NCBI GenBank assembly: GCA_028865725.1
Contig: JAGWJP010000001.1
Span: 207,143-271,142, forward strand
Source: Patescibacteria group bacterium
GTDB taxonomy: Bacteria > Patescibacteriota > Minisyncoccia > UBA6257 > JACRHW01
DNA: 64,000 nucleotides
Reading direction: 5' to 3'
A program made the translations under genes and the position numbers. Under the pieces are notes generated by a model that saw only the letters and a list, made by a program, of their open reading frames with translations, was not told the origin of the DNA and made no database searches. Positions 1,580-6,310 of this stretch are shown piece after piece (positions within the stretch are counted from its first letter, which is position 1; each line of letters opens with the position of its first letter).

Positions 1580-2622
1580 AAGAGAACACGAATAATGGAT
1601 ATCAGAGCATACGAAAAAGGGTTTTGAAGAAAAGGGTTTTCAACCACTTCTTTTCAAAACCGCTCTTGTTTCCCGATGAGGCGGTTTTTAAAAATATGAC
1701 GATTGGCTATCCAGTTCTCCGACTTTGAAAGAGGGTGGAGAACTGGGAAGCGAATCAGTGACGGAGGAAGGACTGGTGTTTGAAAAGTGAACATATTTCG
1801 TAAATCGCATTTTCCCAGCTTATAAGGTGTAAACCATATAAGCGGGTTATCTCTTTTATGAGGAAGCAATTCTTCATAATAAGAAAATCAAACGATTTCC
1901 CTAAGTCCTCATGACATGCAAATGTGATGAGGCAGCGTTGAATGTAGAAAGACTCTTCCAAGTCTGTTCAACGTGTAATATCTATCTAGTTGGATACGGG
2001 TAATAGTAAGGGCACACGGTGGATGCCTAGACACTAAAAGGCGATGAAGGACGTAGCGTAGCTGCGATAAGTTTCGGGGAGGTGTGTAGCAACCTTTGAT
2101 CCGGAAATTTCCGAATGGGGCAACCCAGCACAGCAAACCTGTGTTACTTCGATATTAATAAATCGAAGGGCAAACCTGCTGAAGTGAAACATCTCAGTAA
2201 GCAGTGGAAAAGAAAAAATGTACGCGAATTTATACTGGCGTACAGGATGGCACATGTCATCGCGTCGTCAGTATAAATTCGCATTATTTCCTCAGTAGCG
2301 GCGAGCGAACAGGAAAGAGCCCAAACTTATTAGTCCTGAGTTTATCGAAGGATTGATAAGGGTTGTAGGGGAAAACACTCAATGTTTTAATTGTTCTGTA
2401 TCGGTCTTGTGCTTACAAGACTGGGAGAACAATTAGAACGTTGTAAAGAGTTACAAAATGAGTTCTTAGCTGAATCTGCCTGGAAAGCAGAGCCAAAGAG
2501 GGTGATGGCCCCGTAAGCGAAAAGAATTTCATCTCTTGTTTTTATCCCTGAGTACACCGACAAACGAAAGCGTTGGTGGAAGCATCCCACACTACAGGGA
2601 AAGGCTAAATACTTTTAGTGAT

Positions 2623-2659
<37 letters not shown>

Positions 2660-3748
2660 TAGGCCGGGAGGCCGATGAAATAGAACCTGAAACCGTGTGC
2701 TTACAAGGAATCGGAGCCCCCCACCATTTTTACTGATAGGCGTTGTTGTCTTCTTCTCTGTTGAAAAGAAGACAATAGCGTAAAATCAAAGATGCACTAT
2801 TGGTGAAAATGGTGGGGGGTGACGGTGTGCCTATTGAAGAATGAGTCAGCGAGTTATCCTGCATTGCTCGTTTAACCCCGCCCCACTTTTATGAAAAATG
2901 TTGTTGTACCAGCATTGAGTAATAGTGCATAACTGGTCTCTTTTGGTGGAGGAGATATCATGTTGTAGAAGTGGGGCGGGGGAAGGCAAAGCGAAAGCGA
3001 GTCTGAATAGGGCGTCGCATTTTCTAAGTTTATACGTTTTTGTCGCAAGACCGAACGTATAGACTTGGGATTTTGCAAGCAGTGCGGGCTAGACCCGAAG
3101 CCGGGTGAGCTTGCCGTGGCCAGGATGAAAGTCGACGAAAGTCGACTGGAGGTCCGAACCGGTTGGTTGTGCAAAACCTTCGGATGAGCTGCGGTAAGGA
3201 GTGAAAAGCTAATCGAACTCGGTAATAGCTGGTTCTCTCCGAAATAGTTCTAGGACTAGCCTTGGGACAACTACGTGTGGGGGGTAGAGCACTGGATGAA
3301 GGGTAAAGGGCTTCGGCTCGGCCGTTCAATCAAACTCCGAATACCCATACGACTATCCTGGGAGTCAGACAGTGGGGGCTAAGCTCCATAGTCAAAAGGG
3401 CAAGAACCCTGATGTTCATCTAAGGTCCCTAAGTTTTGACTAAGTGTAAAGGAAGTGACAAGCCGAAGACAGATAGGAGGTTGGCTTAGAGGTAGCCATC
3501 CTTTAAAGATTGTGTAACAACTCACTATCATATCCCTCACCTTTCGGTCGTAGATTTTTGTCAGATTAAGTTATTATTTTCTTATTTCTGATTATCAATG
3601 TACGTTCGAAAGGTGAGGGACTGGCTTGTTGCGCCGAAGATATATCGGGACTAAGTCAAATACCGAAGATAACAATTCCGTGCCTCACTTTTGTGTATAT
3701 ATGTATAAAATATAAGGAAATCTATCGAAATTAAGAAAAGGGATTTAT

Positions 3749-3885
3749 GTGGAGGTAGCTCAATTGGCAGAGCTTCAAGGAGGTGGTTCGTCATCATGCG
3801 ACGGGCAAGTGTGCGCACGCTTACCCGTAGCAGACACCTGCTAAAACCTTGAAGGTTCGAGGTTCGAATCCTCGCTTCCACACCA
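3749..3885 (+). ncRNA. tRNA-like element with genomically encoded CCA, embedded in the helix-45 intervening sequence of the 23S rRNA
   Basis: The acceptor stem is GTGGAGG/CTTCCAC with one G-U pair. U8 and A9 are present. The D-arm is GCTC-AATTGGCA-GAGC. The T-arm is CGAGG-TTCGAAT-CCTCG. Discriminator A and CCA follow. The anticodon-arm position (TCAAG...CTTGA) carries a ~68-nt structured insertion (AGGTG...CACCT, ACGGGCAAG...CTTACCCGT), so no normal anticodon loop exists. Confidence 0.5.
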
Positions 3886-5234
3886 GGGAAGCAGCGTCTT
3901 CCCTCCCTTTTCTTGGTTTTGATAGTGAAAATATATCCATAAAAGCGAGGCACGGTCTGGTAGGAGAGCATTCCAAGGGCGTTGAAGGTCAATCCGCGAG
4001 GAAGACTGGAGCGCTTGGAAGAGAGAATGCTGACATGAGTAACCGCAAGCACGATGAGAATTCGTGCCCCCGCAAATCCAAGGTTTCCGTGGCAATGGAA
4101 GTCAGCCACGGGTTAGGCGGCCCTAAGGCGATGGCGAAAGCCGCAGCTAATGGACAGCTGGTTAATATTCCAGCCCTCCGACATAACGTTCGATGGGGTG
4201 ACGAAAGAAATAAATGGGAGGGGATCAATGGTTATTCCCTCATTTGAGCTGAGAATGGTGTATTAGGAAAATCCGGTACACTATCTTTAATGATGGCATT
4301 CGGGCTTCGATGAAAGCGGGGATTATATTCTCGCGATTCCCGTGAAGAGCTTTCCAAGAAAACCCTCTAAGAATTAAGGTATGGCGGACCCGTACTGTAA
4401 ACCGACACAGGTGGATGAGGCGAGTAGCCTCAGGGGAACGGGTGATTTCTCGTTAAGGAACTCGGCAAAAAAGCGACCGTAACTTCGGGATAAGGTCTGG
4501 CTCACGCAAGTGAGCCCGCAGCTAAAGTTTCTCTGGCGACTGTTTACCAAAAACACAGCTCCCTGCTAACTCGTAAGAGGATGTATAGGGGGTGACGCCT
4601 GACCAATGCGAGAAGGTTAACGGTGGCGGTGTGTGCAGCACTTAGTTTGTAAGTAAGTAACGCTTATCAATTAAGTGCTGTGCATGCTAACTGCCCGAAG
4701 CCCTCGTCAATGTCGGCGATAACTATAATCGTCCAAAGGTAGCGCAACTCCTTGTCGGGTAAGTTCCGACGTGCATGAATGGCGTAACGACTGGAGAACT
4801 GTCTCAACGAGAAGCCCGGTGAAAGTGCGACACCAGCGAAGACGCTGGTACCCTATAGCGGGACGAAAAGACCCCGGGAGCTTTACTGTAGCTTGATATT
4901 GGGTTTACGTTCTAATTACGTAGCGTAGTGGGGAGAGGTTGAAGGTTTGATTTCGGTTGGACTGGACTCGTCAATGAAACACCCATTTTTTAGAATGTAT
5001 ATCCTAACCTTTGCGGAAAAACCGCAGGGGGACAGTGTCTGGTGGGCAGTTTTCGTGGGGCGCGATCCTCCCAAAGAGTAACGGAGGAGTTTATCAAGGT
5101 CAGCTTAGCCTGGATGGAAATCAGGCTGGACGTGTAAAGGCACAAGCTGGCTTAACGGCAAGGCTTACAAGCCGCGCCGATGCGAAAGCAGAACTTAATG
5201 ACCCGATGGCACTTTGTAGAAAGGCCTGAGACAT

Positions 5235-5270
<36 letters not shown>

Positions 5271-5401
5271 GGTCCGAGCGTCCCTAGCGACGACCAGGTT
5301 CGGCACCTCGATGTCGGCTCATCTTATCCTGGGACTGAAGAAGGCCCCAAGGGTTTGGCTGTTCGCCAATTAAAAAGATACGCGAGCTGGGTTCAAACCG
5401 T

Positions 5402-5850
5402 TAAGAGACGGACGTTATGAACATGAATCATATCGCTCGGTTTTTTAACAGTTTGAACCCCGAGGAAAAGACATGAGTCACGGCGGCATCTAAACATTTG
5501 TTTAGTGTAAAGTTAACTTATATCGGTAGAATCCACTCATCAATGGACAATACCGAGGGAACAATGCAAAACTCAAAATGCAAAATTATGAAGATATGAA
5601 AATGTGCATTTTCATATCTTCATTTTAAACTTTGAGATTTACTTTTTACATTTAAGTATCATGAAATGACACGATTGGCCCGTAGAGACTACACGTTAAC
5701 TATTCCTAAATAGAAAGACTCGAACTTTTAAGGGAAAGTTCGTTCGATCTTAAAGATTTAGGAAGAAAGATATAGTCCAATACACTTAGTAATAAGTGAA
5801 AACAACCACTGAGCTTTTATTCTTACGAGAGTTGAAGTGAAGTAATATGC
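5402..5850 (+). other. ~450-nt ORF-less insertion in 23S domain V, a candidate group I intron or large intervening sequence
   Basis: The conserved sequence GGGTTCAAACCGT ... GTGAGACAGGTTGGTCTCTATCTGC corresponds to E. coli GGGUUUAGAACGUCGUGAGACAGUUCGGUCCCUAUC at ~2586-2615. It is split by ~450 nt of AT-rich structured sequence containing a perfect 16-bp hairpin, GAAGATATGAAAATGTGCATTTTCATATCTTC. No ORF longer than 60 aa is present. Confidence 0.35.
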
Positions 5851-5992
5851 GTGAGACAGGTTGGTCTCTATCTGCTATAGGCGTTCGAAACTTGAGAGGA
5901 GTTGCCCTTTGTACGAGAGGATCAGGGTGAACGAGCCTCTGGTGTATCGGCTTTCATACCAATGGAATTGCCGAGTAGCTATTGCACGGAAG

Positions 5993-6025
<33 letters not shown>

Positions 6026-6195
6026 CACCTCAAGATTAGGTTTCGTGGTTCGACGCGAGTCGAACGAAAGACCCCTTGAAGATGACAAGGTTGATAGGCT
6101 TCAGGTGTAAGGCCAGTAATGGTTTCAGCCGAGAAGTACTAATAGGTCGAACTTCCCGTATCCAACTAGGTTGATATTGGAAAATTTATTTCTTT

Positions 6196-6310
6196 GGCGC
6201 ACTGCTTTGTCAGAAGCTGCGTTTCTCGCTCACTGTACTTTCCTCGTACAGCTCGCAAGAAGCCTTGCTTCTTTCGCGCATTGCATCCAAATAAAATAAA
6301 TTTTCAGGAT
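6196..6310 (+). repeat. dispersed structured repeat, copy A, in the 23S-5S spacer
   Basis: TGCTTTGTCAGAAGCTGCGTTTCTCGCTC-[hairpin CTGTAC..GTACAG]-CTCGCAAGAAGCC..TTCTTTCGCGCATTGCATCCAAAT. It is about 80% identical to the copies at 9880 and 25925. Confidence 0.6.

Follow-up and report, generated by a model that had tools for sequence, protein, structure and literature searches.

An ORF-less group I intron at L2593 of a Patescibacteria 23S rRNA gene, with a covarying hairpin across its 5′ splice site

Here we describe an insert of 448 nucleotides (nt) in the 23S rRNA gene carried by a 64,000-nt stretch of Patescibacteria DNA (the whole of which is hereafter referred to as the window; positions without a further label are window positions). 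The insert, at 5402-5849, lies at site L2593, has a group I intron fold whose pairs covary among relatives, and belongs to a Patescibacteria-wide group of introns (family A). Judging from these features, it is most likely removed in vivo by guanosine-initiated transesterification, and we place the probability of this reading, intron identity and splicing route together, at about 90%. The preliminary description had proposed a group I intron without a homing endonuclease near E. coli 2590-2600 in domain V. That proposal is upheld by a significant, though sub-threshold, Rfam match, by the catalytic core and its covariation, by the score of the orthologue in the closest relative and by what the consulted passages of PMC11270868 report for the site.

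Position, boundaries and class of the insert

The Rfam bacterial 23S rRNA match spans 1994-6163 (4170 nt against a 2925-position model), and this region was aligned with MAFFT to the E. coli 23S sequence (L001:760-3663), which serves as the numbering reference. In the alignment, the 448-nt insertion is located directly 3′ of E. coli U2593 on the + strand, and the exon resumes at C5850, which corresponds to E. coli C2594 and is needed for the helix-93 (H93) pair with G2599. The true exon split is therefore between GGGUUCAAACCGU and CGUGAGACAGG: the insertion and its start had been placed correctly in the preliminary description, which gave 5402-5850 and so ran one base too far, into exon C2594, beyond the true end at 5849. 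The junction is within helix 93, a few nt from U2585 and A2602 of the peptidyl-transferase centre, and direct reading of the sequence indicates that the helix-93 pairs are kept through compensatory exon changes. The insert is AT-rich, as had been described, with a GC content of 33.9% against 47.9-50% in the flanking exons. Its longest open reading frame on either strand encodes 34 amino acids (aa), well within the earlier statement that none exceeds 60 aa; a homing endonuclease ORF (LAGLIDADG or GIY-YIG) is absent from the intron, and tblastn searches of 1901-6300 with LAGLIDADG proteins of the family gave no match.

A permissive Rfam scan of 5350-5900, which includes the Intron_gpI and group II models that the preliminary description had suggested searching, matched Intron_gpI (RF00028) at 5630-5799 with 38.5 bits (E 2.4e-8; gathering score 50), and there was no group II model among the 29 matches at E <= 10. 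The RF00028 alignment includes the hallmark GACUA...AAGAUAUAGUC motifs. It also deletes 81 model positions, skips P3-P6, mis-threads the 5′ half of the window copy and places a hairpin module of loop L6 at P2-like positions, and it was dropped as a structural guide. We attribute the low score to two insertions, 119 nt in L6 and 47 nt in P8, which mis-thread the alignment.

The closest relative, a Parcubacteria-group groundwater MAG (JACRHW010000006; hereafter L083), has 23S exons that are 96-97% identical to those of the window and carries an orthologous intron of 300 nt (L083:1826-2125). The two introns occupy the same site, have the same guide and are 85% identical over intron nt 38-161; the L083 copy has neither the L6 module nor the extension of P8, and its L2 loop is still GUAA. 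It scores 63.4 bits against the RF00028 cutoff of 50. Given this above-threshold score of the orthologue and the covariation described below, we regard membership of 5402-5849 in the group I class as established from sequence comparison. Relative to the L083 orthologue, the window intron is larger by an insertion of 119 nt in L6 and another of ~47 nt in P8. Since these peripheral insertions break the alignment, the Rfam threshold misses the window copy, and copies like it will be under-counted in surveys that use the Rfam cutoff. A second 23S group I intron is present in L083 (L083:885-1099; Rfam 65.9 bits), at a site that is uninterrupted in the window, so that two genomes with 96-97% identical 23S exons differ in the introns they carry.

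Fold, covariation and relatives at L2593

The architecture of the intron was built by hand from the sequence and then tested by covariation (Table 1). The resulting fold has all the defining group I elements: a P1 wobble, an adjacent P10, helices P2-P9, the P7 bulge, the AAGAUAUAGUC motif and a terminal G. The core pairings P3-P7 and a G-binding site in P7, which had been named earlier as a check on the intron call, are thus accounted for, with P3-P9 all found and G5687-C5777 being the pair equivalent to the guanosine-binding site. The guide, UCACGGCGG, matches the reverse complement of the ligated CCGU-CGUGA junction at every base but the wobble G. Both J4/5 (GAA) and J5/4 (CAA) in the P4-P5 region (5523-5556) are A-rich. 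P7 and P3′ are separated by no more than CAC (5692-5694), and P8 begins 1 nt past P3′. An unconstrained minimum free energy (MFE) fold finds P2, P3, P4, P5, P6, P8 and P9 as well as the P10 pairing (z = -7.0).

Table 1 Features of the intron and its exon flanks
Feature	Position	Strand	Remarks
5′ exon end, 13 nt	5389-5401	+	E. coli 2581-2593
Helix X	5389-5397 / 5452-5460	+	5′ strand is exon sequence GGGUUCAAA (-13 to -5); 3′ strand in intron
P1 exon strand CCGU	5398-5401	+	U5401 is the splice-site U
ORF-less group I intron at L2593, 448 nt	5402-5849	+	
Helix Y stem-loop	5402-5447 (5402-5409 / 5440-5447)	+	5′ strand is intron +1 to +8; variable tip; covaries in A1
ACAG opposite exon CCGU, then helix X 3′ strand	5448-5460	+	ACAG pairing weak; conserved mismatch at exon -3
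Internal guide sequence, UCACG then GCGG	5478-5486	+	ACGGCGG invariant 28/28
P10, UCACG with 3′ exon CGUGA	5478-5482 / 5850-5854	+	Adjoins P1 strand; 90% paired
P1, exon CCGU with GCGG	5398-5401 / 5483-5486	+	U5401.G5483 wobble; paired 28/28 (100%)
P2 hairpin	5490-5505	+	Loop AUUU in window copy; GNRA-type in almost all relatives
P3	5511-5517 / 5695-5701	+	Compensatory change in 4/7 pairs
P4	5523-5528 / 5551-5556	+	100% paired, covarying
P5	5532-5535 / 5544-5547	+	93% paired, covarying
P6 (5557-5681)	5557-5559 / 5679-5681	+	Encloses L6 extension; 100% paired, 2 compensatory pairs
L6 hairpin module, 119 nt	5560-5678	+	AT-rich (25% GC); basal stem CUCAAA/UUUGAG; palindrome 5588-5623 at tip
P7 5′ strand	5685-5691	+	G5685, bulged A5686, GACUA 5687-5691
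P8	5703-5764	+	5 outer pairs all compensatory; extended in window copy
J8/7 (GAAAGAUA)	5765-5772	+	
P7 3′ strand UAGUCC	5773-5778	+	Six P7 pairs invariant, 100% paired, n=28
P9 hairpin	5783-5798	+	GUAA loop invariant; 100% paired; 5/6 pairs compensatory
P9.1-like hairpin and 3′ tail	5799-5849	+	Terminal G5849 (omega G)
3′ exon start CGUGA, 5 nt	5850-5854	+	E. coli 2594-2598; exon strand of P10

One genome per species was scanned for the pattern GATATAGTC-N(50-80)-CGTGAGACAG, which yielded 88 loci, mostly from Patescibacteria MAGs. Around 60 of the 88 have an insert exactly past U2593. The inserts are 270-801 nt long, some have an endonuclease gene and others have none, and in 60 of 60 the insert is preceded by U and has G as its last base. 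The inserts form two families, A (35 members, including the window) and B (25 members, mostly Saccharimonadales), to which the P4-P6/P7 core sequence is common. Family A has a 5′ exon ending in ...ACCGU, the guide ACGGCGG and a hairpin across the splice site (X/Y, see below), whereas family B has a 5′ exon ending in ...GAACGU, an ordinary P1 with the guide GCGUUC (read in L013) and hairpins at the P7.1/P7.2 position; examples are L060 and L085 for the former and L013, L058 and L072 for the latter. The distance from the P7 5′ strand to J8/7 is ~40 nt in family A and ~100-115 nt in family B; the 85 nt of the window are due to the P8 insert only. In two members of family A, L060 and L085, loop L6 contains a gene for a single-motif LAGLIDADG_1 protein (Pfam PF00961).

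Several observations on individual loci may be added. The LAGLIDADG proteins of the two families are homologous (L060 against L072: 35% identity, E 4e-28). A Saccharibacteria MAG (L059:2545-3036) has a 492-nt family-A intron with an ORF of ~44 aa in L6, preceded by a GGAGG Shine-Dalgarno-like motif; its product is not a LAGLIDADG protein, and its C-terminus looks hydrophobic. One Yanofskybacteria locus (L040) matches the scan pattern and has no insert at 2593, which points to a group I intron a short distance upstream.

The hand-built model was mapped onto an alignment (A1) of 28 full-length family-A inserts with their exon flanks, and pairs were counted. Over the 69 model pairs, 89.5% are standard pairs, compared with 32-44% in controls whose 3′ partners were displaced by 1-3 columns; changes on both sides of the pair are seen in 34 of the 69, and none of 500 shuffles reached any of the five measures used. 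Helices P3, P4, P5, P6, P8 and P9 covary, each being 81-100% paired. P1 and P7 are invariant and fully paired in the 28 sequences, so that their support comes from conservation and not from covariation. P2 is only 50% paired in A1, because the 2-nt-shorter loop of the window copy shifts the alignment. The ACGGCGG guide is the same in every sequence even though its flanks are hypervariable.

L2593 counts among the classical sites of group I introns: it is known from cyanobacteria (PMC1995217) and is documented also in the passages of PMC11270868 that were searched (Tsurumaki et al. 2024). According to those passages, Rfam assigns 45% of CPR 23S insertions to group I, the ORF-less group I introns of CPR 23S genes number 222, LAGLIDADG_1 genes occur at position 2593 (apparently site 23IS12 in the site list of that paper), and ORF-bearing and ORF-less copies are scattered over the CPR phylogeny. 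The window intron agrees with these CPR introns in host group, site, Rfam family and the division into LAGLIDADG_1-bearing and ORF-less copies, and, as far as they are described there, nothing essential differs; it adds the L6 module and the P8 insertion. Because ORF-less group I introns at 2593 in CPR are thus published, the intron itself is of low novelty. The same passages of PMC11270868 contain no description of RNA secondary structure or of two structural families at 2593. A curated fold is now given for one CPR intron family.

The I-CreI-encoding LSU intron of the Chlamydomonas chloroplast also occupies L2593. Cyanobacterial L2593 introns are described, in the passages of PMC1995217 consulted, from Synechococcus C9, S. 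lividus C1 and Thermosynechococcus, and have a P7.1/P7.2 extension of ~65 nt adjoining P7. The cyanobacterial and chloroplast introns resemble that of the window in site, short P5, short P2 and the single-motif LAGLIDADG of ORF-bearing relatives, and family B resembles the cyanobacterial type in its hairpins at the P7.1/P7.2 position. By contrast, the family of the window intron has no P7.1/P7.2 (3 nt separate P7 from P3′, with P8 directly after) and has its P1 region replaced by the long X/Y hairpin and a distal guide; the window intron, moreover, has no ORF.

Proposed splicing and peculiarities of the window copy

The fold suggests a conventional group I route. In a first step, the GCGG part of the guide would pair with exon CCGU to form P1 with the U5401.G5483 wobble, and an exogenous G, held in P7 at G5687-C5777, would then attack after U5401. 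The UCACG segment of the guide would align the 3′ exon through P10, after which G5849 would take the place of the exogenous G and the exons would be ligated, restoring helix 93. With no homing endonuclease of its own, the intron would be passed on vertically, or else would depend for its movement on an endonuclease provided in trans.

Compared with the >=85% consensus of the other 27 A1 sequences, the window copy departs only at the L2 loop, at one P8 pair, at position 5765 and by insertions in L6, P8 and the P9 tail. In L2, the consensus G and A at 5494 and 5497 are replaced, giving the loop AUUU; the P8 change is compensated (C-G to U-A). The insertions comprise ~119 nt in L6 (5560-5678), ~47 nt in P8 (5709-5755) and 3 nt in the P9 tail (5817-5819). 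At every position of the P8 insert at least 23 of the 27 other sequences have a gap, and at its centre all 27 do; an inverted repeat was found in P8 (5703-5764). Given the loss of the GNRA loop in L2 and the remodelled P8, the intron may be without one of its peripheral tertiary contacts, and self-splicing is possibly weak or protein-dependent.

Two further points count against the splicing route proposed above: the window copy, at 38.5 bits, is under the Rfam gathering score of 50, and P1 is just 4 bp long, with the splice site buried in a far more stable hairpin of -34 kcal/mol. The low Rfam score and the stable hairpin, together with the missing GNRA-type L2 loop, the altered P8 and the absence of a maturase/endonuclease ORF, could also reflect a decaying group I intron that has ceased to self-splice and that is removed with a host or trans-acting protein cofactor, tolerated or retained, or excised by nucleases to leave a fragmented 23S rRNA. 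A 23S group I intron that stays unspliced would not be unprecedented, to go by the title of Everett et al. 1999 as cited in PMC11270868. We nevertheless consider decay improbable: the window copy has lost none of the catalytic-core positions at which the family is invariant or nearly so, it retains the guide, the wobble pair and the terminal G, and 448 nt retained in helix 93 beside A2602 and U2585 would be hard to square with a working peptidyl-transferase centre.

The insert might instead be no intron at all, but either an intervening sequence of the RNase III type or an expansion segment specific to the lineage. Intervening sequences are common in CPR 23S genes, according to the searched passages of PMC11270868, and many other non-intron insertions, of 60-248 nt, are present in this same 23S gene. 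Against this, the insert ends without a long terminal stem (the mutual pairing of its ends is the 5-bp P10 only), its site is the universally conserved helix 93, outside the helices that classically carry intervening sequences, its group I core is complete and covaries, and the Rfam scan matched no group II or other family. Variation of the L2593 inserts between 270 and 801 nt, with or without an endonuclease gene, is moreover the behaviour of a mobile intron and not of an expansion segment. We regard both forms of this explanation as effectively refuted. A group II intron is dismissed because no Rfam group II model matched.

The largest peculiarity of the group I intron in the window is the module in L6. 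The 16-bp perfect palindrome noted in the preliminary description exists and is slightly longer than stated, with 17-nt arms (5588-5604 and 5607-5623) that are 100% complementary and 2 nt apart; neither arm has a second occurrence in the window. The module occupies the loop that in L060 and L085 houses the LAGLIDADG gene. Over 117 nt it has 79% identity with L083:2466-2582, a segment of the L083 23S-5S spacer, outside the L083 intron, in which the lower stem is partly degenerate. Because the module is found at different places of the rRNA operon in two close relatives, the palindrome, which is outside the ribozyme core, is the tip of an AT-rich hairpin that constitutes a separable module. No target-site duplication is definable for the copy in the L083 spacer, since the spacers of the window and L083 differ by replacement and not by simple insertion.

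Two origins of the module were considered, and neither gained support. Were it a dispersed repeat of the MITE type, further copies would be expected; the window contains none, and a single metagenome scan queried with the conserved ends of the module returned one partial intergenic match without the palindrome; these searches gave no evidence that the module is an abundant mobile element. For an eroded LAGLIDADG gene, tblastn with two endonucleases of the family found nothing in 1901-6300, and a remnant origin, though possible, is unsupported because of the 25% GC content and the homologue in a spacer. The module is composed of reiterated AAATG(C/T/A)AAAA-like motifs in both orientations. The partial match from the metagenome scan lies upstream of an ORF on an unrelated contig (L090:2020-2091, - strand).

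The splice-site hairpin and other features of the 23S gene

Helices X and Y together form an inverted repeat with 24-nt arms around the 5′ splice site (local MFE -34 kcal/mol). Across family A, the intron strand of the hairpin tracks variants of the exon (CAAAC/GUUUG, CAGAC/GUCUG, UAGAC/AUCUA). Tested alone on A1, the hairpin is 87% paired, compared with 18-58% for slid partners, and has a covariation score of 0.313 compared with 0.154 for shuffled alignments (0/500 reach it), with double changes in 9 pairs. On this comparative evidence, the X/Y hairpin is a real, conserved structure in family A. L085 is without X/Y and has its guide at intron nt 5-11; the hairpin is therefore dispensable.

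Bases of helix Y are also involved in a repeat reported previously, in which the 5′ flank TAAGAGACGG was said to repeat the downstream exon GTGAGACAGG in part. The two do share GAGAC, in both cases at +4 to +8 from the junction, and nothing beyond it. The shared motif is kept only in the near-identical L083; in other relatives it varies, co-varying with 5440-5447, its partner in helix Y. Neither of the readings suggested for it earlier, an internal guide sequence or a remnant of the target site, therefore holds; the guide is located downstream at 5478-5486.

At the centre of the hairpin, the splice-site U faces A, and not G, in 25 of the 28 sequences, and exon -3 is unpaired in 24. Helix X and P1 together form a pseudoknot that is beyond the energy model, which makes whole-molecule constrained folding uninformative, and local duplex energies were used instead: +0.9 kcal/mol for CCGU with ACAG, compared with -3.6 for CCGU with GCGG. 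By these calculated energies, the hairpin looks like a P1 stem-loop without the wobble, having a soft spot where the true guide binds.

Two roles can be envisaged for X/Y. It may be a 5′-exon tether and presentation scaffold that offsets the 4-bp P1, in which case it would present CCGU to the distal 4-nt guide in a coaxial X-P1-Y arrangement, in the manner of EBS2-IBS2. Alternatively, it may be a folding switch, an anti-P1 that would time splicing during 50S assembly. In either capacity as a second exon-binding device, its weak CCGU/ACAG centre would be deliberate. That X/Y is functional in this sense (tether and presentation, or anti-P1 switch), combined with relocation of the L6 module within rRNA operons, is a proposal we make tentatively and regard as somewhat unlikely. 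If X/Y does function, the outcome would be a group I intron with two separate exon-binding elements, or with a built-in folding switch.

Tetrahymena pre-rRNA forms an alternative 5′-exon hairpin, P(-1), and group II introns use EBS2-IBS2. Each of these, like X/Y, is a second pairing made by 5′-exon nt upstream of P1, which either competes with P1 or adds exon-binding energy. Unlike them, X/Y has an intron-encoded partner strand, situated inside the P1 loop, which co-varies with the exon across the family; it forms an apparent P1 stem-loop with A, not G, opposite the splice-site U. The searched passages of PMC11270868 and PMC1995217 yielded no description of such a hairpin, and, within the compass of those passages, a conserved co-varying hairpin that buries a 5′ splice site appears to be undescribed. 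The covarying exon-intron hairpin around the 5′ splice site, beside an unusually short P1, is thus possibly new biology.

Other departures from E. coli are present in the same 23S gene. Further insertions in 2225-4694 comprise 61 nt after E. coli 232, 102 nt after 301, 90 nt after 546, 97 nt after 610, 60 nt after 651, 90 nt after 1116 and several of 15-21 nt; none of them matches an intron model. There is one deletion, of 23 nt (E. coli 1703-1725). One more insertion, of 248 nt, lies around the helix-45 site that is classical for intervening sequences (about E. coli 1155-1174) and contains a tRNA cloverleaf (3722-3925 with its enclosing stem). The tRNA-like element itself (3749-3882) scores 48.4 bits with the Rfam tRNA model (cutoff 29, E 2e-9), has canonical acceptor, D and T arms, is followed after the discriminator base by an encoded CCA (3883-3885), and is enclosed by a closing stem of ~22 bp (3722-3743 / 3904-3925). 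Its anticodon loop has 68 nt instead of 7, the last seven of which (CUAAAAC) look like a normal loop. ARAGORN called no tRNA at 3749-3882, and neither L083 nor any other fetched locus has the element. From its sequence, the element may be either a nested tRNA gene or a processing signal that resembles a tRNA.
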